Below are positions 1,099 to 31,290 of a stretch of DNA of 37,639 nt, one piece after another (the stretch's first letter is position 1; each line of letters begins with the position of its first letter). Below the pieces are notes generated by a model. That model had not been told where the DNA came from. It ran no database searches and saw only the letters and a program-made list of their open reading frames with translations. A program made the position numbers and the translations under genes. This DNA comes from Nemertoderma westbladi (Eukaryota; Animalia; Xenacoelomorpha), in the NCBI GenBank assembly GCA_032718475.1, contig JAUCBJ010005280.1, positions 1 through 37,639 of the forward strand, written 5' to 3'.

Positions 1099-1133
1099 TT
1101 ACTTAGATTAACCATTTTTTTTCTTCGTTCCAG

Positions 1134-4100: not shown

Positions 4101-4744
4101 AATCCTCATTGTTTACAGTATTGCTTCCCCTTGTAGAACCTCAAGGAATAATCATGATAGATGATGTTGATATAACAGAAATTGGTTTACATGATTTACG
4201 GAAGTCAATAGCAGTCATTCCACAGGACCCCGTTCTGTTTCAAGGTACTTTGCGTTACAACTTAGATCCTTTTAGTGAATTTGACACTATAGAAATCATG
4301 AAAGCTCTAGAATGCGTTCAATTGAAAACATCACTAGAAATGAGACCCCTTTCTAATTGGGGTTATGGTTCTATTAGCCTCTCTGACAAGAAAACAGCAG
4401 ACGTTTTGGATTTTGAAGTTGAAAACCGTGGCAGTAACCTCAGCGTTGGGGAGAAGCAGTTAGTTTGTTTAGCAAGAGCAATGTTAAGAAACTGTAAAGT
4501 TGTGCTTATTGATGAGGCAACATCATCCATTGATCAGTTTACAGATGGAATTATACAGAAGATAATTTCAAATAATTTCTCTAAAGCAACTGTGTTCACA
4601 ATATCCCACAGGATTAATACTTTCGTGAACTGCGACAGGATAATAGTGATGAGTGAAGGAAAGATTGTAGAATTTGAAGAACCAGAATGTTTACTTGAAG
4701 ATAAGAACAGCTTCCTATATAACGTAGCTAATGAGGAACACTAG
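1134..4744 (+). CDS. ABCC4: ABC transporter subfamily C (MRP4/ABCC4-like, TMD1-NBD1-TMD2-NBD2); large terminal exon with one frameshift at ~3455
   Basis: NBD1 has GPVGSGKS, LSGGQ and the ABCC-type Walker B IYLMDD. NBD2 has GRTGAGKS, IPQDP, LSVGEKQ, VLIDE and SHR. TMD motifs include GQITNLLSSDV and GGILNRFSKD. There is no ATG: a polypyrimidine tract plus CAG acceptor at 1131-1133 opens the frame in phase at 1134. ORFs 1170-3458 and 3455-4744 join at ccactttgatg. The symbol is family-level; orthology is not established. Confidence 0.9.
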
Positions 4745-5944: not shown

Positions 5945-7990
5945 GCCGTTTGAGGATGTACAATCAAAAGACCCTGTTACCTTCTCCCCCCATGGTGTTT
6001 CCTCCCTATCCAAGATCCACGGGCAGGTCAAACACCTCGCCCACCCGCAAGGCTTGTTCCCTTGCCACCCTGCCCTCTCTCGCTTCCTAACGAGAAGATT
6101 CTCCAACTTAAACCCCCTCTTCGCTGTCAAACCCACAGATAAATCCCATCGATTGAGAGCCCCCTCGTACTTCCTAACCACGTCCCTAAATGCCCCTTTC
6201 ACTTCCATTACTCACAGGCATAAAAACCCTCTGCTTGGCTGCACCCGCCCCTCCGTTGGGACCCGCCCGGCCCGGCTTGGCCCAGCTCTGGACCCCACGA
6301 ATATCATTCAGGAAATCCAAAGGGTACCCCATAGCCCAGCAATCGGTCAAATACCTGTCTCTAGCTTTCCCAAACTCCTCCCCTCCCCCGGTCAGTCTCC
6401 AGAATCTAGTAACCTGCCCCTTAACCACACCCTTAAGTACCCTATCATCGTGAAAACTACAGTAGGGTATGGGTAACTTGTTTGACAATGGCTTAAAATG
6501 CACCGCTGTAGATATCGACCTGTCCCCCCTATTAAAAAATAAGTCCAAATCTTAAAAAGGTCGATTTTACGTTCGAGAATTCTACGGTAAATTTTATTGA
6601 GTCCTTACCAAACACAATCTCGCTAGCCCCATTATACTCATCCGTAATTAACTGCTTCTCCCTGAGAGACAGGACCTTCCCGAATATCCCCTCCCCGTCA
6701 TCCACAAACGTCTTAAAATACGTCGCACCAAATAATGTTATCAACCCTACATGTTCATGTACCCGATTAACCATCAATACCGCAATTGACTTCCCAGCTG
6801 GCCCCCCCCCATAGCTAAACCTTTAATCAATAAATAGAATTTCCCAAAAGCACAAAAATAGGTGTGAGATATAACAAATAACAGTAGTGCATTAATCTGT
6901 CCTAAGGTGTATCCCGTCGCGTCCAATATATCAGGGTTCTCGTTGATTGTTGTCGTAATCGCTTGGGTCACCAGGGAATGGTCAACAGACGGGTACATAT
7001 CCACCACGTCCAGCGCCATAAAGGTGACCTCATCGTGCGGATCCCTCGGCAACTGCCGTCGAGCCGTTGCCGAGTCCGGCACGAAATGGGACATTCTCTC
7101 CAACAGGGGCTGGATAAGTGTATTTAGTAGCTGAGCTGGCCTCTCCGATACCGTTCCCGTTGCTGATATAATCAATCTCGCCTTGGGGACCCTCACCCCC
7201 CCACCCCAGTCTATCCATACCGAGGGATCTTTATGGTCCTTAAATAGGGTAAAAACGTAACCCAAAGCTGGGCGCTTCACTACCAGGTACTCTCGTAATG
7301 CAGCATCCCCTATGCTATGTTCTCGTAGTAGGCGTTTCAACCGGGCTACATACTTGTTTGTTGGGTCACGCGGCAACTCCTCGTATATGGATTCGTCCCC
7401 CAGGGCCCTCTTTATTTCCCGCTCCTTTATCCCCGCATCGATAACGACCACATTTCCCGTCTTGTCCCCTATAATGATATCGATTCACTCGTCCCGCTTT
7501 AATTTCTTCAGATCAGTGCGTTGATGCGAGTCTAGATTCGATGCTCTCTTCGGTAGCATGGCCACCTTCTCCGCCGCGCAGTGCAGTTCGCTAATAAAAG
7601 ATTCTAAAACGGGGTCGGTACACGGTCGGGCTACATACCGAGCCTTAAAGGGAATGGAATAGGGAATATAGTTTAGCTCCCCTCTCAATGCATCCGGACC
7701 GTCGTTCCCCGATAGAAACGGGTGCACCCTCGCTCCCGGCTCCCGAGTTCTGTCATCCCGAATCAAGCGTCGGTACCCTAAACTCCTCCTCGGAGTCTGG
7801 TCCCCTCCTCCCGCATCACACCCACGATAAGGTGTAGATTCTGCCATGATTGGATAAATCCCTATGTCGGCTCGACTTCCGCTGCCCTGCAGCTCGTCGA
7901 CTCCACTGAACAAGTTCCTCGCGATGCTCCTAGTCGGAAAAGCATCCTATAATATCGGTGTTGAGACTCGCGGACATCCTCCTTCCCCGC
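5945..7990 (-). mobile_element. Penelope-like element (PLE) RT pseudogene, truncated at the start of the GIY-YIG endonuclease
   Basis: Across frameshifted ORFs: SNLDSHQRTDLKKLK..DK.GNVVVID..IYEELPRDPT, LFKDHK, ARLIISATGT, LDVVDMYPSVD, GLAMG, FVDDG, thumb KGVVKGQVTRFWRL..MGYP, linker LENLLVR..PCG..RCLTCPWI..FDCTSSN. Markedly more GC-rich than its flanks. Confidence 0.85.
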
Positions 7991-8300: not shown

Positions 8301-9042
8301 CAGTACAGGCCACCAGAAAACGCAAATTTGTACAATTGTGAACACATTTTATCAAATGTGTACCAGTGTAATGTAATGTTGTTGAACGGGACAATTGAAC
8401 ATAATTGAATTGGCAACAACCAAAATTTTTTCGCCAAAGGATACAATTGAATACTTTTGAAACGCTTAGTAATCTGGAAACTCTCTGTAGTTTGCCGCTA
8501 ACTGTCACTCACTGCAGCTGGAAATGCGATAAGGATATTGTTTACCTTTATAGTGTGCGGTTAATGGTGTCTAGTAGGCAGGCCTATAGTTAGTGATGTT
8601 AAGGCATCTTCTGGTGTTTCTCTGTGCCCTCTCGGAGTCAGACTAATGGCGCGACATCTCCCTGCACTAAATTAATTATTCAATGGTCTAGGCTCCTCCA
8701 TCCATATGCCCATCCACTCCCATACACCCCATGAACATTAACAGTGTGCGGTTAGTAGTCTCTATATACACTCCATGAACCTCCATGTGGTCTTGTATGT
8801 AGTTCTCTCTCTACCAATACAGCCCATGTCCGCAATGTTACGCCCTGGGGGCTCTCTCATCTACCTGATATCAGACATACAGGCGCACCGCACACAAAGC
8901 CTTTGTCGGTCCCAGCAAGTCAGCCTCCTGCTGTGTGATCTAGAAGATAACTCGCCATAACCTGCCAATCAGACGACTTGAACAAATGTGTTCACATGTG
9001 ATCACATTGGATGAAATCTGCTTTTTCTGGTGGCCTGTACTG
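8301..9042. mobile_element. Non-autonomous Tc1/mariner-type DNA element (742 bp)
   Basis: TIR cagtacaggccaccagaaaa (20 bp perfect, ~29 bp with 2 mismatches). TA flanks both ends (8299-8300 and 9043-9044). Confidence 0.85.
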
Positions 9043-9046
9043 TAGT

Positions 9047-10312
9047 TGTAAAAGCTTTTGCGGATATAACCAGTCATTTTTCTCCACAATAAACTGTTTA
9101 GTTGTTTTAGCGGACATAACAAGCCATTTTCTCCGCAATGTACCCTGTAGGTGTTTTAGCGGACATAATAAGCCATTTTATGCCACAATACGCCAAATAC
9201 TCTAAATACAGTGTAGTTCAGATGACGAAATCTGTCAGCTGATTTGATGTCGATGTGGAGCTTTCTTAACTTTCCTTGTTCGGCTCGCTCGACCAATCAG
9301 AGCGATTTTCATTTTATTTTGCACAGAGGCCTATGGAAAACCGCGCAATGCATGACGGTCTTTGTTTACCTTTCTGAGCGAGAACAACTGCTTGGAAATT
9401 ATTCTGTACTTCTGTGTTAGAAGTTTCAGACTTTGGCCAACATTAGACGGCTTTGATTACAAGAACGTAAATCTATTATCTGCACTCTGGCCACCTGAAC
9501 AACTGTAAACCAAACTGCATCACCTGGACTGACTGGATGCATTACTGGCCCTACTGCACTGTGCAACTGTGCAACTAACCATAAAACTGGTTACTTGGCA
9601 CCTGCGGTACCGGTATCACCGATACTGGCTGAATATCACTGCATTATTGTACTTCTGTTTACTGTCTGTTATTAATGGTTATATGTTGATGGATATGTTG
9701 TTATATTTGGAGAATATCGATAAATAATTATAAAACCCCATCTTCTTGATTACTAAAGGTTAGAGGGACCGGTTACCGGTAGCAATTGCGACTTACATTA
9801 CAGTGGTTTTAGTGTGCATTCAAAGCATTCAAATGCTATTTCATAATCCCTACATGTGTCAGTTGCTATCCTCCTTATATATGATCAAATTCAGTGACGG
9901 TCGGCAGATCAGTGTGCAGCAGTGTGAAATCGTATGCAGCAGTGTGACAGATAATAAAGCATATCCTAAAGAATGCGCTATTTACGAAAATCATTAGCCA
10001 TCTCGTTGTGTTTAGTATAAGTCATAACTCTGTTTTATACTTAAAACGCCACATCCTAAAGGAACTGTTAATATTTCCCTGAAAGTGAATAATATTGTCA
10101 GAGATTATATAGTAACAATCAATCGAATAATACAGTAGGTCTGCAATGCAATAAGGTCAAAGCATCCGAATCCAGTCTCCCTTAACTGTGGGTTAATGAT
10201 CGCGCATAGACTGGCTTCGGCTAATGTTACTTCATGTGCATTAAATAATTGTTATAGGCTAAAGTCGATTTATAAACAAGAGGACACCTAAAATTGGATA
10301 GTTCTTTTTACA
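9047..10312 (+). repeat. 5' LTR
   Basis: Matches 20391-21633 up to 10297. TGTAAAA...TTTTACA inverted termini suggest the end is at 10312 (tentative). It starts with three ~50-bp internal repeats (gcgga..ataac...ccgcaat). Confidence 0.85.
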
Positions 10313-10382
10313 GAACACAGCAGAACACAGTAGAACACAGCAGAACACAATAGAATACAGACGGAACATAGGCGAACACAGC
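10313..10382. repeat. 10-bp minisatellite (gaacacagca), ~7 degenerate copies
   Basis: Seen directly after the putative LTR end, where a PBS would be expected. Confidence 0.7.
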
Positions 10383-11841
10383 TGTAATTAAAATCTACAC
10401 CAAAAAATAACACACTTGGGAAAGTACCGGACTTAATCATACAACTGTAAGATGTCAATTACATATTTAAATTAAATGGCGGTTTTCCATATCCTCCAAA
10501 ATAAATTACCTGATCAGGCCACCCTGGTTTTTTATTGGGATTTTACTTATTTCTGTCAGTTTTATTTATATGTAAGTGTAATATTGAGCAGAAGGCGTGT
10601 AAGCCCGCTCAAATTGTACAGATAATTTGTAGGCTGGATTGTTGTCTGGCTGTTGTTAGGTCTGAAGAGATTGCAGTGTGTGTAGAGTGTATGTCAGATA
10701 AAGTACTAGTTAGGAAGGTGGGGACATCCAGTGCTGTAAGGTAAATCCCCCCTGAAAGAATAAGTCGTACTACTCGGTTAGAACGCATACTAACTAACCA
10801 TTTCGGAGTCTGCATATACTGTAGTTTATTTAGGCTTGATAGTAGTCTGCCAGCGTTTGGTCTGTATTTTGTTTGTGTAGTCTGTACGGGTAGCGTAATA
10901 TTTATTATTCAGAGTCTATGCGAGTATTCGCAACATACATAACTCCACAAGTTTATTCCTACAGTAATTGTGCTTGTTATACATACCGTTATAGTTAAAT
11001 TAACCCCGGTACTACATCAGGGCTGCTTGGCGTAGGTAAAGACGGTGATTTTATGCTCTAGTTACTCCTCCAGATACCGTGGTTCTTTTAGCTGTACAAG
11101 TATTTTTAACCGCTGGTTATTTGTTGTATAAGTACTTGTACCTAATTTAGGGTTTAGTGTACAGTACTTTCCGAAGGTAATTAGTGTGTAGGCAGTATAT
11201 TTGTGTTGTAAAGTGGTTAATAGGCACGTTAGCTCTGGTTGGCTGCGGTAATTAACTTCTAGGTAAGAACACTCCGGGTACATAACGTAGTACTTAAAGA
11301 CTATAAGTCGTCAGACGGTGGTATTTTCTTATCTGGACAACGCAATTTATTTACTACTGCTTAATTATTTTCAAATACCGTAGTCTCCTGTCCGTTGTAA
11401 TAACCAGAAATTCTAACACCTTGTTAGGCTGGTTTGTAGATTTCCTGTAAAATTACCCTAAAATTTGTACGTGTAATTTTTGTGTTTATTTAGAGATTGT
11501 AATCTCACTCCGTAATTGTACATAATTTGTAGTAATAAGTAACTTAGTCAAGTAGAATTATTTGTTTTAGTGTCCAACAAGTAGCATTTCACTGAGAGCG
11601 TTCAGCTTCTGTGTAGTGACTCCTTACCAGAAATAATAACATTTATTTCAAATATTGTCAAAAACCCATTATAAGGGTATATATATATTACAAATCAACT
11701 CAAACCGACTTATAAAATAGTAGGCCTGTCATACATCAATTAGGTCTTAATATCAGTTGGACTACTGCTTAATAACAGTAACAAAGTAAAGAAAAGTAAC
11801 CCCAAAATTCAGAAATTCAGTTATTATAAAATAATTGACAT

Positions 11842-12092
11842 TACCGGTATTTATAGTAGGCTTATTATATTTATTTATATAAATTTACGCTGAAATTATA
11901 TACCGGTATTCTGTAATTAGTCTTAGTCTATAATTGTACTTATATATACTATAAGTGTAAGCTGTATACCGGTATTCATGGTAGGCTTATTATATATTTA
12001 TATATTTATGCTGAAATTATATACCGGTATTCTGTGACAAACCCTAGTCTGTAATAATACTTATATATACTACAAGTGTATACCGGTATTCT
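11842..12092. repeat. ~125-bp AT-rich tandem duplication containing taccggtatt motifs in the BEL leader
   Basis: taccggtatt...gtaggcttattatat...gctgaaattatataccggtattctgt occurs twice, plus a partial third motif. Confidence 0.7.
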
Positions 12093-12227
12093 AATATATT
12101 GTATATATATCACGTTACATTGAGTAACGATATCGGTAATTAATTACTAGGCTTACAGTTGATACTGAATTACTAGATTTGCTTTAGCTGTCGTTATAGT
12201 AGTAGGCATTCAACTGTACAATCAAAC

Positions 12228-15200
12228 ATGGCTGACCCAAAGCAAACTCTGTCAGATAGTCTCCTAGAAAGAACAGTCTGCGACTCCGACAGGAGTACCG
12301 AACATTTGACACCAAAGTTCAAGTCCCCTCCTACTGTAAGAAAGGTCATCCCTCCAGTAGTAGTATCAGACCCTAGGCTAGTAAAGCACAGTAGGTCTAT
12401 CATAGGCACTCGGGCTCAAGTCAAGCGGGACCAAGAGGCAGCTGTTAAACAACAGCAACACTCGAGCCGAGAACTTATTTCTCAGCGGCCCGATAGCTCC
12501 GGTAGTTCAGATACTGTAGAGTTGACACCCGAGCGCGGAACAAAGATAGCAGAAGCAGTTTATTCGGATCCACTTCTCATTCTTCCTGAAGCTGTACTCA
12601 CTAGGGTATTGATTGCGGTGGAGGAACATCAAATCAATTGGGCGAGAAGTAAGCGATCGACCAAGGACAGTTATGCGGGATACACAATGGAGGAACTGAA
12701 GTCTATTGTCGAGACGCAATGGAACTTCCCCGGACCCGGACTCCCGTTTAACTTATCGGAAGCTGCCTGAGAGGACTTATACAGGATGGGAGTGGTAAAG
12801 GACACTAGAGATCCAGCTGTATGGAAGAGGTCGGCAGCAGGATATGTACAGGGATTCTTCAGCTCTTTAGAGCGATTAGAGGAACAACTGTTCCAACAAC
12901 CCCAGGGACCTCAAGAGCAGGGAGAGCTGCTTTATCAAGTTCGAGAACGTATCCTAAGAATCAGACTAATCCTATCGGCCTTTGAGGAAGCTTCGAAAAG
13001 AAGCCAAGACACGTCGTTGCAAGTTGCCGTAAAGACTTGGTTCCAGCGGGTGGGTGTCAAAGTTCAAGGAACGGCCCAGTGGAACATTCAGCTGGCTGAG
13101 CACTCGACCCACGGAGAATCAACAGACGCTACCTTTTCTCAGGTGGAAAGCGAGGTTACATTAGAGAAACCTCAGAAGAAGGATGCCATTGACATCTATC
13201 TGTCGGACTATCAACGATTTATAGGAGATGAAGAGCTAAGGAGACGACTATCTGGACTTCATCCTACTAGTGAGGGAGCCAAATTTGTGTTAGACGCATT
13301 AGATGCGGAAATGTTATCCGTAGAACAGGCTAAATTTGATGAAAGTATCCTCATCGCTAGGGAACAGGAAGAACAATTAAAGAAATAATGGATAGAAGAC
13401 AGAAAGGCAGCAGCAGCGGCAGCGGCAGAAGTTGAAAGAAAAGCGGCAGCTGCAGTGGCAGCGGCAGAGGCTGAAAGAAAAGCGGCAGCTGCAGCGGCAG
13501 AGGCTGAAAGAAAAGCGGCAACGGCAGAAGCGGAAAGAAAAGCTGCAGAAGCGGAAAGAAAAGCGGAGGGCATCTGAAGAGACAGTCCAACTAGAGTTGG
13601 AAAATCTTCAAGAGAAGCAAGATTACTTCAATAAACAAAGAACAGCTAAGTATATGCAGATGGTAAGTCGATCTACTCCCAAGAGACAGGGATTTACATC
13701 ATCTGATGAAGGCGATACAACAGATCCTGAAGGCGGAGGAAATAGATCTCGTTCCAGCAGACGTAGAAGAACGCCTCACCATCAGAGATTGCCTAATTTG
13801 CCCCCAGCTGTGAGAAGGCAACTAGCTAGTGCAGACTGAGGTAGTGCAGAACCCACAGACCAAATTATTAGAGTAGAAAGACTCCCTACTATAGTAGATG
13901 AGCCTGAAATAATTAGGCCTGTTCTCGAAGCCACCCCTTCGGTGATCGAGACACCTGTACTTCCAGAACCTAACTCTAAATTCCCTTTGCACAGTACTAA
14001 ATTACCTGTGCCCAATAGAATAGCCACAGAAACAGTCCCAGTCTTGGACGCCGAGCGAGACATCAATGATTTATCGCCCATCGTCCCTCGTCTACCCGCT
14101 ACTATGTTAGAACTGCAAAAAGTGCAGCAGAGTATCGCGTTAGAACGCGATAAATTAGTAAATATACAAAGGGGTATAACACCACCCCCTGTAACAATGT
14201 GTCAACCTGTTAGGTCTGAAGTATTTCATGTGCAAGGTGTGGAGCCTACACGCATCTATACTGCTAGTGAAGTAGAAACTCCTATAGTAAACCCTATTAA
14301 GGGTAATTATAAACCTGTTGATAATGATATTACATATAGACCTGATCATAATCCGAGAAATTTATATACCGATAACTCGATATTAAATAATACGATGGCC
14401 CAAGAAAGTTTTACGCGTCAAATGGCTAGAACCGAAGCCCGTCAAGCGGTAAAGGTGGGAGAGATCGTCAAGTTCAACGGAGATGAGATGAAATGGTTAC
14501 CTTTTAATGAATATTATAAAGATAACATACAGAACTCTGTGCTATCTAACGGAGAGAAACTTAGATTCCTCATCGTGTGCTTGGAAGGACCGCCCAAGTT
14601 AATGGCGTTAAAGTTTATTGGACATCCAGATGGATTAAGACAAGTTTGGGATACACTAAACATCAGGTATGGTAATAGGACTAACATAGCTCGGTATTTG
14701 TATGCGAAATTAATGGCGCCCCGAAAGTTTCTTAGCAGCGGGATTATAGAGTTTTCCGATGAGATTCAGGAGATCTGTAGACAATTAGACTGGTTGGGTA
14801 AGTCTCATGAATACCAGAATTCTATGGTTGTAGGAGCCTTAGCATCAGCTTTGCCAAAGGGTGAAGTAGGTACTCGCTGGGACAAAAAGGTTCTCTATTT
14901 GATGGACCAACAACATAGAGATCCAACCATGATGGACCTTCTGTCATTCTTAAACCGAGAGGTAAGATTACAACTCCTAAAACAGTCTAGAGAGAAGACT
15001 CCTGAAAGTGAGGTAAGTGAAAAACCCGTTTCTAGGAGAAAGGTAACACCAGTGTGTTATACAGACGACGGCGAAAGCCAAACCTCCCACGAGGAGAACA
15101 GCGGGAAAGACACCGAAAGATCTTATTATATCAACAAAACTCGGAAAGATGTAAGTAAATTTAAGTCTCGAACCAGTGACAGGAGAGAACAGGTAACAAC

Positions 15201-17039
15201 TCCTCCTACGTCTCCTAAGAGAATTCATGGAAGAAAGCCCGAGGAAAGAACAAGTGTGCACCACACAGCACAGGTTAAAGTAAGTAACATCAAGCCCAAA
15301 TGTGTATTGTGCGATGGGCCACATCGCTTAAGTGGGTGTGATGAATTCCTGAAGAAATCCCTTAAGGATAGACGTGATGTCATGTGGGATAAGCGGTTGT
15401 GTTATAATTGTCTCAGACGAGGCCACCAACGGCGGACCTGTTACTCAGATGCTAGGTGTGCTAAGTGCGGCGCGAAACATCATATCTTGCTGCATACAGA
15501 ATTTGAAAGAACCCGCACGAGTCAGGTAAGTGAGCCCGAACTACATGTCCAATTCAGTGATGTGAACGACACTGACCACAGCTCTGAGATGGAAGGATTC
15601 TACACTGACGAATTCTCCGACGAAAACGAATCCTGTTATATGACAAACACCGCGGTGTATCGAGCGCTTACGTATGAGACTGAAACCGATAACGAAGCGA
15701 ACCCGGCCATTCCTGACCGACAACCATCTTGGAAAGCGCCAACTTCCAACGTCGGAATCCGGGAATTCCCCATAGTTCAGCTGAGAGTCCATGGATCAGG
15801 TAAGAGTTTTATAGTCAACGCCCTCCTGGACTCCGGCAGCACAGGAACATTCATCGACAAAGAACTAGCCGAAGACATCTTTGCTGGACAACCCAAGTTC
15901 CGAACTAAGTTGAACCTTTCAGGAATTATGCAGGTTTGGAAATCCACAGTAGCTACAGACTACTATGTAGGAGCGTTGTCCACTCCCCAGGACCAACTAG
16001 GAGAACATAGCATAAGGTCAGTAAAAATGGTGGCGATAAAGAACTTTGCTACCAGCCAAATGGAACCTTACAACTGGGATGAAGACGATTTTACCCAGCA
16101 GCATGATATCCCTAGATTCAACACCACCCAGGGGTACAGATACTCATCGGACAAAATGTGCATGAAGCGCTAGAGACATTAGAAAAACGGCCTGCTCGGC
16201 CGCAACCATTACAAACATATGCGGGAAGAACAAGAGTAGGTTGGTACTTCACTGGACCTTCCCGTAGGACACTCATGGAAAGGCTACCTAACGACCAAGT
16301 CCATCAAGTGAGTGAATGGGAAGAAGAAATCAGTGAGGGAGAGACCACAACTGATGGAATACCATACTCCTCAGATAATGACGATATTAACTCTAATGTA
16401 GATCAATGGAGACATTGCCCTGGGACGATTAATCCAGCCGACATCGCTTCCAGAGGAGCAACCCCTCAAGAACTGATAGATACTCCGGACAGGTTAGGTG
16501 GACCCGACTTCCTAAGTAAAGAAGAAGATGAATGGCCTCCCCATCTTACCACGGCTGAGATTAGACAAGCCAAGGGAGCGGAGAAAGTCAAACCTAAAAC
16601 CCGGACGAGTAAATCAAAGTTATTCAAACCCGTGATAGATCGGTCTGTACTACACATTTCCAGGGACGACGCTGTAGATCTAAACTCCCCCGCCACAAAT
16701 AAATCTGTTGTGGAAATCAGAGAAAAAGACTGGAAATCTGGAACACCAGACGTCTCGCAGGGATTCTCACCTCTCCTGCAGAGAGCGATAAATCACTATA
16801 GCTCCTTGAATCGGCTTTGTAAGGCCGTCGTGTATTTGAAGCGATGTTTCTATTGTCACTATTCCAGGACGAAGAAGAAACCTGGAATTGTATTTGAAAC
16901 ACAACAACCCAATCGCTCAGTTGGTCGTTTATGTTTACTGGAAAGAGACAGAGAACTATCCGGAAACTATGGAAGGCAAGATACTCTTCCCACGACCACC
17001 TCCCTAATCCAACAAACATCTAGGGACTCCCCAACATAA
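12228..17039 (+). pseudogene. BEL/Pao gag-pro-(deleted pol) polyprotein pseudogene
   Basis: ORFs 12228 and 12786 share a frame, as do 13432 and 13942. Stops at 12768, 13386 and 13837; frameshifts at ~13570 and ~16130. Motifs: DUF1759-like FNGDEMKWLPF..EKLRFLIVCLEGPP, three Cys/His knuckles (CVLCDGPHRLSGC, CYNCLRRGHQRRTC, CAKCGAKHHILLH), protease ALLDSGS, RTRVGWYFTGP, RNase H end QWRHCPGTINPADIASRG, pol C-terminus RSVGRLCLLE. No RT or integrase core. Confidence 0.9.
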
Positions 17040-17565
17040 CAGCGTCTGGAGTGGGTGTGTGACCATATTATTTTATATTCGTTTTTTTTTATTATTTTAT
17101 ATTTAGGTATGTATTATTATGTAATTTTCTAATAATCGTTTTCTTTAATTTTATTTAGTAGAATGTTATTTTAGCGATTATTTAGTAGAATTAGTGCAAT
17201 ATATATTCGTGTTTATTACTTAATTACTTATATTATATATTTAGTGCAATGGCGAGAAATAATTCTTTTTCTCTTTCCTTACTGTCCGTATCATATTATA
17301 AATACGTGACTACAGTAAGATGAAATGTCCGTACTTATTAAAGTACAATAAAGCTCCTACTATACTTAAGTATTATTGGTAAGTAGAGTATTAGGAATGC
17401 AAAGTTCAGATCCTCGTGTCTTGGCTAAACCAAGCTCTGGGTAGACCTTGGAAACGACTTGCCTCTTCTCACTGACATTGCTTCTTGCAATATTGCTCTC
17501 ATACCGTATATTAAATAATACAAATAGTAGTGTGATGTCCCTTTAACAGTAGCGTACAATGCAAA

Positions 17566-17968
17566 TAAATCTGTTAAACCCTTTGACCATCTGTAATTCT
17601 AGTCGATTAAGATATCGTGGCACCCACCGATATACTTGAAAGACAAAATTCTAGAATCAATGGTTAATGTCCCCAGACATGTTCTGGAATAAATCGGTGC
17701 CCATCTTAAATATTACATAGTTAATATTTATAAAAATCTATTAAAACAAATGTTATAATAGAGTAAATGCATACAAATAAACTCTAAGGAGTTTGTAAAC
17801 CAAGAAAATTTATAAATCAAAATCTGTTAAAATTTAGATCCTTTAAAATTCTAGTCGATTAAGATATCGTAGCACTTACCGATACTCTTAAAAAGACAAA
17901 TTTCCTAGAATCAAGGATCCCAGTCCCCAGACATGCTCTGGAATAAAATTGTGTCTATTTTAATATTA
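17566..17968 (+). ncRNA. Two ~150-nt direct repeats predicted to fold into the same RNA structure (copies ~17566-17715 and ~17819-17968)
   Basis: The attctag/ctagaat and ttaagatatcg/cgata..ctt.a stems are shared. The basal stem is ttgaccat/atggttaa in copy 1 and gatcctt/aaggatc in copy 2 (compensatory). The repeat is certain; the RNA function is inferred. Confidence 0.45.
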
Positions 17969-18572
17969 AATAATAAAATTTATGGGAATAAATTTAAATT
18001 CATATCCTTTCATGAATTTGATAAATTGTCATTTTATACAATTTATAATATTCCCAAAATTCCATTAATTAATAGATCATGGGAGCGGAGATTCACCCTA
18101 TTAAGTGTATTAGTGTGCGAGAATCTCCAATATATAGTCAATAGCCGATAAAATTCATAAAATCATGTATAAGGGGGAATATTGACAATTAAAGAATTAC
18201 TATTAAATAGCATCCCAGATCTGTATGCATGAGAATTACCCTAATTCTACTGCTAGCTTTCCATAATGTCACCATGGCAACAACCACGCTAGAATTAGAA
18301 GTGAGTTAAAAGAACAATAAAAAGCTTGCCCCATTGAATAGCATACGGAATAAATAGCGCACTGCTAGTATCCAGGGATACATAATAATAACGTGGCATT
18401 CTGGAAGGCACTTGACTAACGGACAGATGGCCCGAATGTGTACAATTTGTGACAGTTGTGTGGAGTTTGTGCGTTTATAGGTGAATGTTACTACTAAAGT
18501 GTGTTTACAGTAGCGAGTCGCAGTTGTGAAAGTAGCCCTAACCCTGCAGTAAGAACCTGAAGTAAATATAAG

Positions 18573-18704
18573 CCCTTGGGACGGACAGTGGAGTGACTCG
18601 CGCTGGTTGTTGTTGTCGTTGTGCAGCTACTACGTTGGCGATAGACACAGCGGCGACAGTACATCAGCGCTGAGGATCTTGCACTGTCCGGGGGCCGTGA
18701 GGGG
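18573..18704 (+). ncRNA. Long G-U-rich RNA hairpin upstream of the extra ORF
   Basis: cggacagtg (18582-90) pairs with cactgtccg (18682-90); gcgctggt with atcagcgc; tgttgtcgttgtg (18611-23) with cacagcggcgaca (18646-58). Confidence 0.5.
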
Positions 18705-18769
18705 TAGGCAGCGACGCCCGCTAGCCTAATTATAATTAATTATAATATTGATAAACTCATATAGCAGCT

Positions 18770-20298
18770 ATGTCTGAGTTGATAGAAGATGATCTTGGTA
18801 TCAGGGAGCGATATACCCTACCATTGTTGATAGTTTAATACGCGGTGACGCTAGTCCCTCTACTACGGAGGACGATGGCCGTTATATCGAACCGCCAATG
18901 TCCAAGGAACAACTCACGCGTGAATTGGACTATAGAAAATTCACCGCTCGCTATACGCATCGTAATGGTACGTATATAGACTTCTTTACTACTGGCCATC
19001 CTATTGATTTACACGATATGGACAATGTAGGCACCGAAAGGGAAATGATCCTATTTAAATATCATACCCAGCAGAGTCGGAACGACAAACTGAGAATCGA
19101 ACACGAAAATTCTATTCGAAACCAACTCGAAAGAGAAGACGTTAAAGAACCTGATAAACGCAGTGACTTCAACGTATATTTGGAATTCTTGAGAGAGACG
19201 TTGTAAAACTGGAGAAAGATCACCCGCGTTTCCCCTACAAGACGTGCTTCTTTGGTATTATTACGATGAATGCCCTAGACCCAACCAACACACGGAAAGA
19301 CATAAACATCCACGGAGACGTTGCGCTAAACACAGTTTTACTCGCTATATTTACGGGAGTTTCGAGCGAAACTTGTTCGACGTATCACTTACGCTCGCTC
19401 GACTCAAACGATCCTTAAATAAACCGATGATCAGAGTTCCGGAATACTCGGTCAGGCCTCCTCACTCCCTGGTGAGACCTCAGACTCTTGATCCTAATAG
19501 TATGACGGATCCTCCTGAGCTGTACTCATTGTTCAAAGATCTAGTGTTATCCGAACAATTAGTTGGTGGCACTCCGGTTGTAGGCTCCCTCGATATTCGC
19601 CCATCCTACCTAGCTGGATTGGGACGCGGATACCTAATATCGCCGTTCAACCCGTATAATCGTCCCAATCTAACCCCGATACAACCTGTCACCGAGGTGG
19701 AGGAGAGAGTTGTACGCAACGCGTTAGACACTATTCGACAAAAGATTGGAAAAGGAACCTACGATTGTTCAGAGAAATGTAAATTGTAGCAGCAAGTCCA
19801 AGCGGTAAACGAATTAGCTTTATCTCAGTTCAATCGGGAAATCCAGAATCTCTAAGAAGATATCGAACTTGGACGACTCTACTCTCTGCAAGAGTTTTGG
19901 ACGAATGCTTCCAACGACAAGCAGAGGAAAATCAGCTCGAGGAGAAGCATATCGATTTCGACAAAGCCCGAGAACGTGAGTCGAAAAGAACCATCAAACT
20001 GAGGAAATTTCTCACTACACGCGGTCCACCTACCACTCTCGTGCAAACGACCCGTCAGGAACCAGTAAGAGCTGCTGTCTTAAAACGCGCTCTCAAGGTT
20101 GTTCGACCTCATTCCATTGAGGTTGATACCGATCAACCGGGTACCTCGACTGGCGGATACACCGACCATAATCCTAAACCTTCCGATGCAATTGTATTGC
20201 ACCCTTCACCCAGGAGTTATAGCCCTCCTAGTAAAGTGGCTCGCCCCAAAGAGAAAAGGACTCTTGCTAGCCTCAAAAAACTGCGTAAACACCGTTAG
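18770..20298 (+). pseudogene. Decayed extra ORF of the BEL element (unknown soluble protein, ~500 aa)
   Basis: ATG at 18770. Sense ORFs 18898-19206, 19244-19789 and 19897-20298 are contiguous and linked by frameshifts and in-frame stops. It ends in basic KRTLASLKKLRKHR ~90 bp before the PPT. No signal peptide or TM segment is visible. Confidence 0.65.
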
Positions 20299-20382
20299 CG
20301 TAAGAAAGACTAACTGTTTAGAGTATTTTTATATTTTAGAAACTGTGATTTTTATATTTTATAGAATTAAATCCCATTTTCT

Positions 20383-20390
20383 GGGAGCGG
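20383..20390 (+). promoter_or_regulatory. Polypurine-tract-like plus-strand primer site
   Basis: gggagcgg lies immediately before the TGT start of the 3' LTR. Confidence 0.6.
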
Positions 20391-21633
20391 TGTAAAAGCT
20401 TTTGCGGATATAACCAGTCATTTTTCTCCGCAATAAACTGTTTAGTTGTTTTAGCGGACATAACAAGCCATTTTCTCCGCAATGTACCCTGTAGGTGTTT
20501 TAGCGGACATAATAAGCCATTTTATGCCACAATACGCCAAATACTCTAAATACAGTGTATAGTTCAGATGATGAAATCTGTCAGCTGATTTGATGTCGAT
20601 GTGGAGCTTTCTTAACTTTCTTTGTTCGGCTCGCTCGACCAATCAGAGCGATTTTCATTTTATTTTGCACAGAGGCCTACGGAAAACCGCGCAATGCATG
20701 ATGGTCTTTGTTTACCTTTCTGAGCGAGAACAACTGCTTGGAAATTATTCTGTACTTCTGTGTTAGAAGTTTCAGACTTTGGCCAACATTAGACGGCTTT
20801 GATTACAAGAACGTAAATCTATTATCTGCACTCTGGCCACCTGAACAACTGTAAACCAAACTGCATCACCTGGACTGACTGGATGCATTACTGGCTCTAC
20901 TGCACTGTGCAACTGTGCAACTAACCATAAAACTGATTACTTGGCACCTGCGGTACCGGTATCACCGATACTGGCTGAATATCTCCGCATTATTGTACTT
21001 CTGTTTACTGTCTGTTATTAATGGTTATATGTTGATGGATATGTTGTTATATTTGGAGAATATCGATAAATAATCATAAAACCCCATCTTCTTGATTACT
21101 AAAGGTTAGAGGGACCGGTTACCGGTAGCAATTGCGACTTACATTACAGTGGTTTTAGTGTGCATTAAATGCTATTTCATAATCCCTACATGTGTCAGTT
21201 GCTATCCTCCTTATATATGATCAAATTCAGTGACGGTCGGCAGATCAGTGTGCAGCAGTGTGAAATCGTATGCAGCAGTGTGACAGATAATAAAGCATCT
21301 CCTAAAGAATGCGCTATTTACGAAAATCATTAGCCATCTCGTTGTGTTTAGTATAAGTCATAACTCTGTTTTATACTTAAAACGCCACGTCCTGAAGGAA
21401 CTGTTAATATTTCCCTGAAAGTGAATAATATTGTCAGAGATTATATTGTAACAATCAATCGAATAATACAGTAGGTCTGCAACGCAATAAGGTCAAAGCA
21501 TCCGAATCCAGTCTCCCTTAACTGTGGGTGAATGATCGCGCATAGACTGGCTTCGGCTAATGTTACTTCATGTGCATTAAATAATTGTTATAGGCTAAAG
21601 TCGATTTATAAACAAGAGGACACCTAAAATTGG
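20391..21633 (+). repeat. 3' LTR (probably lacking its last ~15 bp)
   Basis: About 16 substitutions and 2 small indels versus 9047-10297 by eye. Homology stops at cacctaaaattgg. No matching TSD was found. Confidence 0.88.
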
Positions 21634-22078
21634 CAGGTTAAACTGCTAAAGGTCTGAAAGCGCGAACAATAGTAAATGTATGGCGTGGAGATATGGTAGT
21701 GCGAAATTAATTTTTTTACCGGAAACGAGTTTTATAAATATAGGCCCGAGGCCCTAATAGATAAAAATAAAAAGGATAAATTAATTGTAGATAAAATAGT
21801 TGTTGATAAAAAAAACGTGTTAGAAATAACTTCTTGACCCTAATTTAATTTAACCGAAATTGAGATGTTCTGCCCTCGTGTATTGAATTTTGCATTGGAT
21901 GGCCTTTCCTGCAAAACCTAAAAGCATAATTGGGCAGCATAATTGAATTTGGTAAATTAAAATTAGTGACAAAAATTACTTATTTCCGAGACTGTTCTCT
22001 ATCGGAGAACATTTCTTTCTCAGCAAGTCCAAATCTAGATATGAAATATTATATCTTTGCACTAAGCCCACACTTTTG

Positions 22079-22675
22079 GTGTGGGCTACTCCTATCTGCT
22101 ACCCGAAGGTAGGGGTGAGCGCTACTCCTATCTGATACCAGAATGTAGGTGTGGGCGCCACTCCTATCTGATTGATACCCGAAGGTAGGGGTGGGCGCTA
22201 CTGCTATCTGATACCAGAATGTAGGGGTGGGCGACACTCCTATCTGATACCCGAAGGTAGGGGTGGGCGCTACTGCTATCTGATACCAGAATGTACTGGT
22301 GGGCGCCACTCCTATCTGATACCCGAAGGTAGGGGTGGGCGCTACTGCTATCTGATACCAGAATGTAGGGGTGGGCGCCACTCCTATCTGCTACCCGAAG
22401 GTAGGGGTGGGCGCTACTCCTATCTGCTACCGGAAGGTAGGGGTGGGCGATACTCCTATCTGCTACCCGAAGGTATGGGTGAGCGCTACTCCTATCTGCT
22501 ACCAGAAGGTAGGGGTGGGCGCCACTCCTATCTGCTACCCGAATGTAGGGGTGGGCGGTACTCCTATCTGCTACCCGAAGGTATGGGTGGGCGCTACTCC
22601 TATCTGCTACCCGAAGGTAGGGGTGGGCGCTACTCCTATCTGCTACCCGAAGGTAGGGGTGGGCGCTACTCCTAT
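22079..22675. repeat. 36-bp minisatellite, ~16.5 copies
   Basis: Unit tactcctatctgctacccgaaggtaggggtgggcgc. It produces the 12-aa periodic ORFs in several frames. Confidence 0.95.
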
Positions 22676-24313: not shown

Positions 24314-24838
24314 TCACAATGGGGCGGCAGAGCTACCAAACATACACATCTTGAAATCGTCTATATTTAATGTTAACATTTCGTCAGCATCACAACTAGT
24401 AACGCTTTTAAAAACGATGAATTTTCCAAGCGATCGACAAAATTTCCAAATAAAGTACATAATGTCATTTTCCTTGTCACGAGTGTTTGACCCTTCAGGA
24501 GACCTATTCATAACAATGACTTTGTCAACCATATCTGCTAACCGTAATTTAGGCGTTATGTACAGAAATTTGAACAATATGTCTCTCCTGGCTCTAGGGA
24601 GATACCGAATGAGCTTCGATTGAAGTATATCAACTGCCGCCTTCCGTGAATCCACGAGTTGGGCATTAATACAATTACCCATGAATGTATTAATTTCAGG
24701 GAACGATGTTTCCACGGGGGGGATGAGACCTAGGTCCAAACTCTGCTCTTCAACTATCTCACTAATTTTTCCAGTTGAGAGAAATGCTGATGTTGAATTG
24801 AGTATTGATATACATGGCCAATGGGCTAGTACCGACAT
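24314..24838 (-). CDS. Orphan 174-aa ORF or pseudogene fragment of unknown origin
   Basis: Long, globular-looking open frame in AT-rich DNA. No family recognised. Confidence 0.3.
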   Translation of the reverse strand: MSVLAHWPCISILNSTSAFLSTGKISEIVEEQSLDLGLIPPVETSFPEINTFMGNCINAQLVDSRKAAVDILQSKLIRYLPRARRDILFKFLYITPKLRLADMVDKVIVMNRSPEGSNTRDKENDIMYFIWKFCRSLGKFIVFKSVTSCDADEMLTLNIDDFKMCMFGSSAAPL

Positions 24839-26360
24839 GGGAACCCGTTCACCATATGCAATAAACTACGCAACTACAGGGTGGATAATTCCCACAAACC
24901 TTCACTATGAAGGTGGATCATGGCGAATAATTTAGCAATAGAAGACATTCTTCCATTATTTTTGTGCACAAATATTAATTATCATTATTATTTAAATTTA
25001 CATTTTGCAGCTACTGACTATTTTTATACCGGTTTAAGTATTTATAAATTTATGCATTGTTTTATTTTTAATGCATATACAGTATTATAAAAATTTTTTG
25101 GAGGCCCCCTTGAGCAGAGGCTCCTAGGCACGTGCCTAGACAAGAGTCCCACAAGAAATGAAAACAAATAAGTTGGTGCCAGTTACCAAGAAGGGCAACC
25201 TAACTCTTTTTAGTTCTTTTCGGGGAATCTCATTGATCTCGATTGCTGCAAAGCTATACAATAGAATTATATTAAATCGCATCAGGGATCCCATTGAGAG
25301 ACTGCTCTGTGGAATGCGTCAGAATGGGTTCCGTAAAGGTCGTGGGACCATGGAGCCCATTTTGGCACTTAGAAGGATAATTTAAGAGTTAACAAAATAG
25401 AAAGACCGGCATCTGGCTGTTATCTTTGTTGACTTCTTCAAGGTCTTTGATTCAGTCTCTCGCTCACGTATGTTCAGCATACTTTCAATATATGGGATTC
25501 CTGATGAAATTATTGCAGCAATCAGATCAGTATACGATGGTTCGACAACATTTCTGTCTACTGTTGACGGTGACACAGAACCATTTGAAGTGTTATGGGG
25601 TGTCCTCCAGGGAGACACACTTGCGCCATTATTTTTCATGATTGTGGTTGACTACGTTCTACGCATGTCCTTAGATCATCATAATGACGATGGGGTGATG
25701 GTAACTCCACCTACTGGCTCCAGAAGTCGAGGAAATCCTGTCAAGTACCTAACTGATCTAGACTTTGCTGATGACTTAGGAGTACTCTCAGAATCGCTAG
25801 AGGGAGCCCAACGGCTCCTCGGCTCATTAGAACAGGCTGCTTCTAGTGTTGGTCTTTTTATTAACTCCAAAAAGACCAACTTTGAAACTTTGTTAACTTT
25901 GAAAGTCCTCAGCAAGTCTCTGACCGGATGAGCATAAGCTCAAAGGATGGTATGCTTGAGCATGTGGACGACTTCTGTTACCTGGGATCATGGATCCGGA
26001 AGTCAGGTGAGGGACCTTCGAATACGTAAGGGAAAGGCATGGGCAGCCTTGAATAGGCTTTCCAGGATTTGGAAGTCACAGAGAATTAATAGGAAACTTA
26101 AGGTCCGGTTATTTAGAGCAGCAGTAGTTCCAGTACTCCTCTATGGGAGTCCATGCTGGGCTCTAACTGCTGAGGACACCAAATCTCTGGATGGCCCATT
26201 CACAAGAATGCTACGCCGGGTTCATTGTGTCATGTACAATGCACACATCTCCAACCAGACACTATATAACATTGGAGGTGTCTCATTGGTTCCCCCAAGC
26301 TTGACACTAGAACAAAGTCGCCTCCGCTTTGCAGGACATTGCTTTCTCCGTGAGGACCAG

Positions 26361-28390
26361 TGTTGCTGCACGAGTGAACTTAGCCTTTTAGATTACTTAT
26401 TCTACCAATTTTAGTCCAAAATTATATTTTTATTGATAAAAGACCAGTTGCGGTGTAATATTAATTATTTCTATCGAATTATTCTCTAGTAAGGGTCTTA
26501 TGCCATCTAGTGAGGCTATTATACCCATATTCGAATTGATTTATTCAGCCTGTTGAAGCCCCAATGAGATACGTGATGCCTTATTGGTCCATATTATTGC
26601 TTTAAGTGAACCTGGTATATAATGCTTGCTAGTCGACCATTTATTCACTTAGTACATCAGCATTCTGCAGAGGAGTTGCTTCCTATGCAGGCCCTTGGAC
26701 ACTGGTCAGATTACTGACGACCAGTGTTTATTACATGCCTTTATGTATGCGCAATAATTCTTATTGTCCGTTTAAATCCTTTTTTTTCCTTTTTTTAAAT
26801 TTTTTATGTCCTCCAAAAATCTAATGTTAGGTTCCATGCTACCGGTTTCTCTACTGCTGTTCTCTTAGGCTATCAGTACCGGTATTAGTATATATAGCAC
26901 TATTTTGCTGTATTGTATGTACAGATGTAGGTATAAAGCAGGTATTTCTGTATTTTAGTACCGGTACCGGCACCGGTACTGCTGTAGGCATACTGTGTAG
27001 CCTACCATTTAAATACGGTACTGGTAGGCCTATTCTCTCAATTGGTAATGTTATCGTTTATTGTTTTGGTTAGAAAATCCCGTCCCTGTAACCTGCTCCT
27101 TTCCCTCAATTTGTTAAATGATCGTTTATTGTTTTGGTTAGAAAATCCCGCCTCTGTAACCTGCTCCTTTCCCTGATTTGGTAAAGTGACTGTTTATTGT
27201 TTTGGTTAGAAAATCCGGCCTTAACCTGCTCCTTTCCATCAATTGGTAATTGTTTTTGGCTATAAAATGAGTGTTTTGCTACGTCATGTGGTAATCGATT
27301 ATCGACAACAACCACAAACTATTAAATTTAGAGTCTTTTACAACAGGCGCATATGGAATTCTATCTCATAGTCTATAAATCATGGAATCATGGAATGTTT
27401 TGGCACAGGCATAGTGAAACCAACTGTCCGACAGACCAGAAATCAACAAAGTTTGAATGTTTTGGCATAGGCATGTTGAAATCAACTGTCTGACAGTCCA
27501 GAAATCAGCAGTCTGACAGTTTGAAGAAATACATACATAAAAAGTCATTAAAAGGACAACAAAAGTCATTAAAAGGACAACAAAAGTCATTATGCACAAT
27601 TCGTAAAAAAAGGAGGACAAAAAAAGTCAAATAAAAGGACATAAAAAATCACTGCCTTATGTATGTGCCTTTATGCTTTGTATCTTTGTCGTTAACATTA
27701 TAATATTACTAATTGATATTCTGTCGTTAAATTCAATTTACTCTCTTTGTTTGTATATCGCCGATATTACGAGATCAAGAAGGTTTTACACGCGCCATAA
27801 CAAGGTGGGTCTCTACAATTAAGTATTAGTGATAATCTGGACAATTGTATTAGATTCGTGTGTTGTCTTACCTCTGATTTGCTAAATAATTAATATATGG
27901 CGATATACCAGACCATTATTATAAGCAAAGCCCTTATTATTAATTGTATCACGATTGAGAGTGGTCATAAATTGATTGCGGTAGAAATATTAATATAATT
28001 ATACATAAAGACAAGTCAAAATACGTTTCCCATAAAGGGAAACACAAACACTGGACTTGGGGTCCTTACAGAATTAATTAGTCAGCATTTACTTGTTATA
28101 CTGTGTTGTCGCACCCTCCCGGTATCGATCTCAGCTAAATACAATAGATAATCAATTACCGTATCGAACTAAATAAGTTATAGAGCAAATCAATACTTGA
28201 GAAGGAAAGGAAGGGGATTTAATCGAAACAGTGAGCGGTCCTCGGTGACAGGTACACTAGCGCAATTCCGTTTATTGTATCAGACCAATATCCAAAGGCC
28301 CTCAGTGCATAGAATCTCTGTGTAGTACTAAAAGAGTCAAAATATATGAAATTGCGATTGAAAGAACATATTTTACTAAAAGCGCTAACA
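26361..28390. mobile_element. Solo LTR-like insertion (2030 bp) with a 5-bp TSD
   Basis: Begins TGTT and ends AACA. ACCAG is duplicated at 26356-26360 and 28391-28395. The copy at ~5465 shows the empty site (gaggaccagccagtgcat). Confidence 0.85.
27038..27258. repeat. ~67-bp tandem repeat, ~3 copies, carrying the gtaacctgctcctttccc motif
   Basis: gtttattgttttggttagaaaatcc...taacctgctcctttcc is repeated three times. Related motifs occur at ~120, ~23142 and, inverted, at ~33433. Confidence 0.75.
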
Positions 28391-29530: not shown

Positions 29531-31290
29531 ATGTTCAGGTCATGATTCAGGTCAGGTCAGGTATTCGAGGTCATTGATCAAGAAAACTTGCCACTTCCAT
29601 GCAGCATAAATGAGGTGGCACCTGTGGCTGTATAGACCCTCTTACTAGGGCAAATCTGGTCCTGTAACTTGGACCCCCTTCGTTCTGGGATAAGGGCACC
29701 CTTGGTCCTGGATTAAGGACCCATATACTTGGCTGCTGGGGTATATGGCCTGGCCAGGCAGATGGTGATCTACCAATGGCTGGTCTGGAGTAGATTGTTC
29801 TCATGTCCACTCTGAGTGCACTTCACTGCGACCTGCATCTGGCAGCAGGGGTACAGGGCATGGCCCAGCAGATGAGCTGCACAGCCATTGGTGGGTAATG
29901 TGCGTCAGAGTAGATATGGGCGATGGGCCTTATATCTGACTCCACTGCGACACCCACCCTATGGAATGGCAAACCAGGGTGTGGTATTTGCCCCGAGAGC
30001 TGACTCGGCAAAAATGCACCCCCCAACCCCCACTATGGATTACATTAGTAATGCGGAGGTCCGGCCACTAAAGGCCAGTATAATTACTGGACACAATTGG
30101 CCTCACAGGCGTCAGTTTTCTCCTGACCGGCTGCCTGTCTCACCCCCTACTGGAGAGAGAGCGGCCAACAATTCTGTGAGTCCCTTTCCTGATGACCTTT
30201 CTGGCCCAAACCCTGGGTCATCAGGGACGCCAGATTGTAAGGGGGAGAGGGATTCTGGAGTTGGAGGCTATTCTCACGTTCCACACCGACCAACAAAGCC
30301 ATTGGTGAATCTGAGGCAAGTCACTAGACTAGCCTCAGTAAACACCCTAACACTCGGGTCCTCAATGTGACAAGGTGAGCTGACTGCCCTGGAAGATAAG
30401 CTTTCTCTTAGCGCAGTGGGTATTCAAGAGCACCGAATGCAGACTGGACAGACTGATAAGGTTCTGATTAAGGACATGGGGGACGGTTGGCGACTCACCC
30501 TCGCATCAGCAGATGATAGTGGCAATGGTGGTATTGGTCTATTGATAAATCCAACTACACATGCAGCATTGGACAAAATAGACCAAATCTCTAACCGCAT
30601 CATCCGTTGCCACTTCTCATGTTCTGGAAGACTGGCTAAGAAGTTTCCTAAAGTGGTTCTGATTGTGTGCTACTCTCCAACTAGTGTTGCCCCTGTAGAG
30701 GAGGTGGAAAATTTCTACCACAATCTACAAGCAGCTACTGATGGAGTGGATCAGCATGCATTCTTAACATTCCTGGGAGGCTTTAATGCAAGTCTGCATC
30801 AATCACCTACATCGGCCTGTGTCTATAGCGATAGTGTAAATCGAAATTCCGTCCATCTTCAGGATTTTATCTCTGGAAATGGATTATTTTCAGCTGGAAC
30901 CCAGTTCAAGAAGCGAACTGGAAAGCTATGGACTCAGAGTGGACCCAGTGGTCACAAGTCCCAGATAAAAATATATTCTGTTTCGTAGGAAATACAGGAG
31001 CTCTATACAAGACTGTAACGCATTTACACTTCGACCCTTCTCCAGTGATCACCGCCTTATTGTGGCCAAGGTAAGACTTAGTCTGCGTTCTAGCAGAACA
31101 ACGGAATCTGCCGTGCCGCGCCGCGGCATGACTGGTCCTCTCTGTTGCAACAGCCAAGTGTGAGATCCAGCTTCACACTACAGCTGAGCAACAGGTATGA
31201 GGTTCTTGCCTCTGAGGCGGCAGATCACTGCGAGGGCTATACTGCCTTCACAGAAGCAGTTAAGTTAGCAGCTGCAGAAACAGTTCCTGT
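29531..31290 (+). mobile_element. RTE LINE 5' part: structured 5' UTR plus APE endonuclease pseudogene
   Basis: LASVNTLTL, GIQEHR, GNGGIGLLI, ISNRII, IVCYSPT..FY..LQ, LGGFNA and an SDH-like agtgatcac motif. Upstream are many short hairpins and a (caggt)n start. Confidence 0.8.

Follow-up and report, generated by a model that had tools for sequence, protein, structure and literature searches.

BEL/Pao elements (Belpaoviridae) are long terminal repeat (LTR) retrotransposons known only from animals (PMC8742986). Their replication is poorly understood, and the ICTV profile gives only gag, pol and env (PMC8742986). In the relevant sections of PMC554778, PMC9094657 and PMC8742986, BEL/Pao third genes are described as env-like only, and the corresponding sections of PMC3118150 and PMC2774666 name no accessory gene for this group. 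Non-autonomous elements that retain an extra open reading frame (ORF) are known, according to the parts of PMC5408684 and PMC11963269 that deal with them. Here, the region that separates the pol remnant from the 3' LTR in a BEL/Pao derivative was analyzed on a 37,639-nucleotide (nt) contig of Nemertoderma westbladi (JAUCBJ010005280.1, assembly GCA_032718475.1), the whole of which is referred to as the window. It was concluded with moderate confidence that this 3' region, shared by an abundant BEL/Pao family, carries cis-acting RNA signals together with a decaying accessory gene other than env. The first-pass annotation of the region had proposed an undescribed trans-regulator and cis-RNA pair, analogous to Rev and its response element (RRE); its observation was partly confirmed and its interpretation is partly supported.

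The region comprises the 3,351 nt between the stop codon of the pol remnant (17037-17039) and the 3' LTR, which begins at 20391. Contigs of four out of seven candidate sequencing runs (X1 to X4, from three studies) were aligned to positions 16900-20500, and 33,665 contigs from X1, 19,948 from X2, 9,888 from X3 and 205 from X4 matched. Each of these runs gave contig depth in all 30 of the 30 bins, mostly at 90-99% likeness. X1 and X2 came from one sample, possibly the source of the window itself; X3 and X4 belong to other studies, and X4 is labelled as a different organism. Because the contigs are short, they show presence and abundance rather than the layout of whole copies. The 3.35-kb region is a regular part of a very abundant family and not a one-off insertion. 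Absence from other copies, which the first-pass annotation had named as an outcome that would tell against its reading, was not found, the region being family-wide in four of the four runs aligned.

The strongest of the fold features in the region is a long hairpin, which as a prediction is as real as first reported. Its predicted stability of -65.4 kcal/mol (z -4.89) was equaled by none of 200 shuffled sequences, and its sense RNA exceeds the antisense RNA in stability by 19 kcal/mol. Among 43 aligned positions of its arms, 32 are Watson-Crick, seven are G-U-type, none is A-C-type and four are other combinations (p 0.008). At least this hairpin looks, from its sequence, to be under selection as sense-strand RNA. 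Upstream of it lie two copies of an approximately 165-nt structured unit, which are 78% identical. A joint fold of both copies, fitted to just the two copies that it compares, contains 31 pairs, of which three changed on both sides, three changed on one side and none was broken. When the structure of copy 2 was scored on copy 1, four of eight changed pairs were broken (null 8.8, P 0.018) and three changes were double-sided (null 0.58, P 0.014). The duplicated, covarying RNA structures that had been claimed are borne out by three double-sided pair changes, within a comparison of two sequences. Overlapping windows with z <= -3 numbered six of 40 in the region, compared with five of 122 outside it, across the leader plus two flanks (Fisher p 0.028, with windows that overlap and hence are not independent).

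No match to Rfam 15 was found in the region, and the only match within 9000-22000 (E 0.85) lay outside it. A ribozyme reading was rejected, because there was no Rfam match and none of the five hammerhead-core pattern matches in the window fell inside 17040-20390. A 23-nt motif of the duplicated unit had no matches in viral and metagenome contigs.

Downstream of the folds, the approximately 500-codon ORF of the first-pass annotation exists as a span of about 510 codons but not as an intact ORF. It is interrupted by three frame changes (18793-18836, ~19201-19206 and ~19900-19935) and by in-frame stops at 19787 and 19853. Its stop-free runs of 198, 171 and 137 codons compare with null means of 88, 70 and 61 in 2,000 simulations; the longest run had a P value of 0.0005 and the third was matched in none of the simulations. 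The bias of first codon positions towards purines and G resembled that of the gag control in the first run and in the last. The stop-free runs are far beyond chance, and the span was therefore once a gene, of which the ORF is a coding relic. At the 19200-19201 break the contigs fell into two classes, some running through as in the window and others (22 in X1, eight in X3, two in X4 and two in X5) continuing upstream into other letters, up to 215 of them in one record. The second class may represent either a longer intact form or a rearranged form.

Searches returned no identity for this gene. The piece at 19193-19786 had no relative among 1.84 billion protein representatives, and two pieces had none among longer proteins, which is weak evidence and does not cover proteins of near length. 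The ORF pieces had no relative in metagenome or viral contigs and no match elsewhere in the window, including its other elements. The best E values were 0.13 against PDB and 0.035 against Pfam, where every match was below the cut-off; for the C-terminal piece, the searches covered Pfam and the window only. One piece gave no usable match in the ESM Atlas. A PAS-like identity for the first piece, suggested by ESM Atlas clusters (0.93), was rejected because only 123-131 of 256 features were common, recognition was under threshold and no PAS match appeared in Pfam or PDB. The match to a known env, another transposable element or a host gene that would have spoken against the earlier annotation was not found in Pfam, PDB, the protein collections or the window. 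Two single-sequence structure models had predicted local distance difference test (pLDDT) scores of 39.0 and 39.5, too poor to read, with helices after the Arg/His-rich patch predicted at 45-57 at best. A fold search with one of the models (pLDDT ~39) returned no matches at E 0.001, from a model too poor for this to carry meaning.

Selection was examined on positions 19170-19440 in four runs, where 40 of 83 differences were listed and 39 of these were classed, the one at the break being excluded. None of the six frames gave a significant result on the whole set of 39 listed differences. At 19341-19415, 10 of 18 listed differences were synonymous against 6.1 expected (P 0.036), this being one of seven subsets and picked post hoc. 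Over the ORF span in the wider comparison (16900-20500), five of 23 listed differences were synonymous, with no null computed, a count taken as a sign of decay in this lineage. Over the patch, another frame (19167-19418) is open as well; it showed no stop-gain among the 39 listed differences, and its first-position purine fraction was 0.59, equal to that of the gag control, compared with 0.44 for the frame assigned originally. The originally assigned frame alone is open to 19786, and divergent contigs span 19201-19413 and 19337-19623 gap-free. On balance, we take the originally assigned frame to be the likelier coding frame over the patch.

The element that holds the region is a BEL/Pao derivative and not a complete member of the group, as it does not contain the reverse transcriptase (RT), most of the RNase H and the integrase expected of one. 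The LTR pair, aligned over 1,241 columns with 1,225 matches, 16 mismatches and two small gaps, differs by a distance of 1.3%. Two LTRs are thus present, as in belpaovirids, with a length of 1,266 bp that is slightly over the 0.2-1.2 kb range. The end of the 5' LTR at 10312 was set from the inverted repeat of its start, as the 3' LTR stops earlier, and a target duplication was looked for beside the 3' LTR (21633) and not found. DUF1759 was recognized in gag (Pfam, E 5.1e-13), three Cys-His knuckles and the DSG protease motif were read directly from the sequence, and Asp_protease_2 scored E 0.011, under the cut-off of that family. The gag-protease frame is broken by stops at 12768, 13386 and 13837 and by a frame change near 13390. 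Its sole relative among 1,620 candidates was a mosquito BEL/Pao protein, P0002, which contains DUF1759, RT and Peptidase_A17. The pol remnant matches residues 369-455 and then 966-990 of P0002, skipping its RT (600-713) and Peptidase_A17 (773-933), and the three sense frames of 16170-18772, with stops read through, gave no family match, integrase included. RT, most of RNase H and integrase are absent from this copy; without RT and integrase, it therefore cannot copy itself.

Directly before the 3' LTR stands a purine-rich tract like the approximately 10-nt tract of belpaovirids. Its 9-nt word has two matches in the window, where 0.10 would be expected by chance, and the internal match is a candidate second plus-strand primer. 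Central purine tracts are described in Ty1, EVADE and HIV in the part of PMC7197481 concerned with them, and the literature search returned no title on a second purine tract in BEL/Pao.

Breaks occur in gag, in pol and in the extra ORF, yet the LTRs are just 1.3% apart, and the combination of young LTRs with these breaks suggests that decay preceded this insertion. This lineage, without RT and integrase, would be copied by enzymes from intact relatives; its genes would decay, but its cis signals (LTRs, purine tract and RNA folds) would have to be kept. Cis signals would be all that it requires, in agreement with the selected-looking folds beside neutral-looking genes. The RNA folds are likely cis signals for export, stability or packaging of full-length RNA. 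By analogy they would most likely recruit host factors in the style of the MusD transport element (MTE), which the relevant part of PMC5767303 describes as exporting via cellular machinery. A shorter RNA, either spliced or started internally, would express the extra gene in intact relatives, and its product would most likely be a soluble, probably nuclear helper that handles element RNA.

Several results weigh against this interpretation. For the folds, the reverse test between the unit copies was not significant, with six of 13 changed pairs broken (P 0.066) and three double-sided changes (P 0.062); for copy 2 and for the AT-rich fold, antisense RNA gives the more stable structure (-31.7 vs -25.5 and -29.5 vs -24.4, respectively), and strong folds also occur in the host flanks (four of 77 windows at z <= -3). 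For the gene, where a test of nonsynonymous against synonymous change (dN/dS) had been recommended, the counts of synonymous differences did not show selection: 15 of 39 listed differences were synonymous in the originally assigned frame against 11.4 expected (P 0.13), an excess that is not significant and leaves neutral evolution tenable, and at 19219-19340, which holds the patch, the count was four of 17 listed against 4.4 expected. An autonomous relative was not seen among the short contigs, in which no whole copies were compared, and some of the breaks could be assembly errors. The roles given to the folds and to the protein are drawn from position and analogy, and binding of the folds to the element's own protein would be a further, unsupported step.

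That further step is taken in a cognate pair of the Rev/RRE type, in which a nuclear RNA-binding protein made from a spliced RNA would bind the folds and export unspliced RNA. Every fold lies upstream of the candidate acceptor that ends at 18767, and a splice there would remove them, as a switch of this kind requires; donor-like hexamers in the internal region number 20 on the sense strand vs nine on the antisense strand (p 0.03). That such a protein can evolve in an LTR retrotransposon is shown by CERV, which according to the relevant part of PMC10309623 has 517 residues and no outside homologue. Both acceptor words given in the first-pass annotation are present, but their pyrimidine tracts are weak and within chance: of the 62 YAG sites in 17040-18800, 13 others reach at least nine of 14 pyrimidines. 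Among the 15 of 42 joints listed in the alignment to 16900-20500, none had support from X4, possibly an RNA run, a result that speaks neither for nor against splicing; none of the seven candidate runs is recorded as RNA. Likewise, the Arg/His-rich patch is present at 19289-19333 but is ordinary, being one of 10 stretches with at least nine Arg, Lys or His in 15 residues (six frames, whole window), and it varies among copies: four of six listed differences inside it are non-synonymous, one of them in ~99% of the X1 and X3 depth. The nuclear-signal-like end corresponds to a basic end at ~20250-20295, but such features are common by chance. The second frame over the patch is the more coding-like in composition, and no relative in the collections searched suggests RNA binding by the protein. 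A pair of the Rev/RRE type could exist but seems unlikely, and it rests on features that chance supplies freely. We consider equally doubtful a switch of BEL/Pao's own, in which an orphan nuclear protein of at least 500 residues from a spliced RNA would bind the duplicated pseudoknotted RNA and export genomes, while enzyme-less copies would keep the RNA element and the internal second primer and borrow the protein. If true, this switch would represent Rev/RRE logic that arose independently of retroviruses and CERV.

The extra gene might instead have encoded a transcriptional activator or anti-silencing factor, expressed from an internal promoter and unrelated to the folds. A TATA box could lie within an AT-only palindrome (18729-18746), at a distance of 25-40 nt from the ATG that follows, the C-terminal end is basic, and a regulatory role has been proposed for Retand ORFs between pol and the 3' LTR (relevant part of PMC11963269); against this, no DNA-binding or chromatin domain was found in Pfam and the structure models are too poor to read, and we regard this explanation as improbable. 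Little probability is also given to the view that part of a host gene or of another mobile element was captured and then carried by a successful family without ever serving it, with folds that are by-products of duplication and inverted repeats. Such a fragment would agree with the lack of a significant overall synonymous excess, with small deletions seen at low depth in the ORF and across the hairpin in other copies, and with the two contig classes at 19201, as in a rearranged region; against it, no source turned up in Pfam, in PDB, among the 1.84 billion representatives (searched with one piece) or in other elements of the window, the G-U strand bias of the hairpin is not what a neutral inverted repeat would give, and there is the weak, post hoc synonymous excess at 19341-19415. 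A highly divergent env or cell-fusion gene is very improbable. The ORF does occupy the env position of belpaovirids (PMC8742986), and the extra sequence of other copies at 19201 might hold a membrane segment, but in the window's copy, which this result covers, no 19-residue window exceeds a hydropathy of 1.10 in the originally assigned frames (range 0.27-1.10; 1.38 in an overlapping frame), in agreement with the absence of a membrane segment noted earlier. Each piece has zero to five cysteines, Pfam returned no glycoprotein family, and belpaovirid Envs are described as membrane-anchored in the part of PMC9094657 devoted to them. As judged from its sequence, the ORF is not a recognizable env. 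The explanation preferred here remains that of cis-acting RNA signals beside a decaying non-env accessory gene.

Coordinates of the features are collected in Table 1. In the LTRs, a 49-nt tandem repeat opens each copy (9056-9190 and 20400-20523). The leader begins with seven copies of a 10-nt tandem array (10313-10382), at the expected place of the tRNA primer site; a simple pattern for the 18-nt tRNA-Arg/tRNA-Gly primer site found no tRNA end in 10313-10700, and the first TGG is at 10417. The leader ends in a 121-nt tandem duplication (11842-12080), and its window at 11793 folds at z -4.0. In gag, approximately 720 codons upstream of DUF1759 (12229-14400) form an unusually long N-terminal part, for which Pfam gave no family match, and 21-39-nt repeats occur at 13406-13566.

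Table 1. Positions in the window of the BEL/Pao derivative, its parts and the features of its 3' region
Feature	Position	Strand	Remarks
Element, BEL/Pao derivative	9047-21633	+	LTR pair 98.7% identical
5' LTR, 1,266 bp	9047..10312	+	TG...CA ends, short terminal inverted repeat
Leader, 1.9 kb	10313..12228	+	10-nt tandem array directly after LTR
gag-protease	12229..16173	+	DUF1759, three Cys-His knuckles, DSG protease motif
pol remnant	16116..17039	+	pre-RT stretch fused to post-RNase H motif; stop 17037-17039
Structured unit, copy 1	17567..17731	+	long stem-loop, small hairpin, possible 6-bp loop-tail pseudoknot
Structured unit, copy 2	17820..17983	+	possible pseudoknot down to 4 pairs (by eye)
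AT-rich three-way fold	17964..18074		z -4.7; antisense fold equal or better
Internal exact copy of the 9 nt preceding 3' LTR	18080..18088	+	candidate second plus-strand primer
Candidate splice acceptor tttacag	18504..18510	+	weak pyrimidine tract, 7/14
Long hairpin, 125 nt	18572..18696	+	48 predicted pairs, 9 G-U on sense strand
Candidate splice acceptor atagcag	18761..18767	+	2 nt before ATG, weak tract, 6/14
Orphan ORF relic, ~510 codons	18770..20298	+	ATG 18770, stop 20296-20298, four pieces
Arg/His-rich patch	19289..19333	+	second frame 19167-19418 also open over it
Purine-rich tract, 9 nt	20382..20390	+	7/9 purines, directly 5' of 3' LTR
3' LTR	20391..21633	+	last 15 bp of 5' LTR missing

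Outside the element, two abutting ORFs at 1107-4744 (783 and 431 codons) presumably belong to one intron-free ABCC-type ABC transporter. Fragments at 6774-7946 (minus strand), 24314-24865 (minus strand), 25401-26414 and 29876-30988 are what we take to be remains of Penelope-type and LINE reverse transcriptases, an endonuclease and a DNA transposase. A 36-nt minisatellite of 16.5 copies, open in several frames, lies at 22078-22675.

Among described systems, CERV of the C. elegans element Cer1 (Gypsy/Ty3) resembles the relic, as far as the relevant sections of PMC10309623 go, in being an orphan protein of ~500 residues in an animal LTR retrotransposon, with a candidate nuclear signal and a basic and Cys-containing stretch. 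CERV was shown to be spliced, nuclear and required for export, and it shares exons with gag (PMC10309623); the two belong to different superfamilies, and no sequence likeness was found, CERV not having been directly compared. An LTR retrotransposon with a Rev-like export protein is already on record, and the earlier word undescribed has to be qualified accordingly; for BEL/Pao, no analogue was found in the literature searched. An accessory protein for Cer7 has reportedly been proposed in another paper. That paper is cited in a part of PMC9094657 where overlapping frames in C. elegans elements are likened to those of complex retroviruses.

MusD MTE, as described in part of PMC5767303, is likewise an LTR retrotransposon's structured RNA, in which loop-loop or pseudoknot pairing is possible; it was probed and functionally tested, whereas the folds described here are predicted, duplicated and without an Rfam match. 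The ORF3s of bdelloid rotifer LTR retrotransposons and the ORFs of Retand elements are, in the relevant sections of PMC5408684 and PMC11963269, non-env ORFs between pol and the 3' LTR that are retained in some non-autonomous copies, with their function left open, and near-neutral variation within the genome is reported for the rotifer ORF3s. These ORFs belong to other superfamilies and hosts; those of Retand, from plants, are antisense, and those of rotifers contain either known folds or membrane segments. The sORF1 and sORF2 genes of the Drosophila MDG1 group, in the corresponding part of bioRxiv 10.1101/2025.03.14.642691, are likewise accessory genes of env-less animal LTR retrotransposons, and sORF1 showed nuclear staining; they differ in encoding 70-110 residues, in lying mostly upstream of gag and, for sORF2, in having a membrane segment. 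With extra ORFs and export elements known in other LTR groups, interest in the present locus is moderate unless a protein-RNA pair is demonstrated. A literature search, which did not extend to Repbase and subscription journals, brought up no title about structured RNAs together with a non-env gene in a BEL/Pao element. The region is a concrete place to study unspliced-RNA export in belpaovirids, and the very many family copies make covariation and dN/dS tests cheap given a long-read assembly.

With Belpaoviridae themselves (PMC8742986), the element shares the LTRs, a DUF1759 gag with Cys-His knuckles, the DSG protease, the post-RNase H motif, a short purine tract before the 3' LTR and the position of a third gene after pol. 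It differs in having no RT or integrase and no tRNA primer site that was found, and in its length of 12.6 kb compared with 4.2-10 kb. Its third gene is also different, being non-env-like and placed after 1.7 kb of non-coding DNA with folds, and a family-wide non-env gene with adjacent RNA folds would extend the belpaovirid plan.

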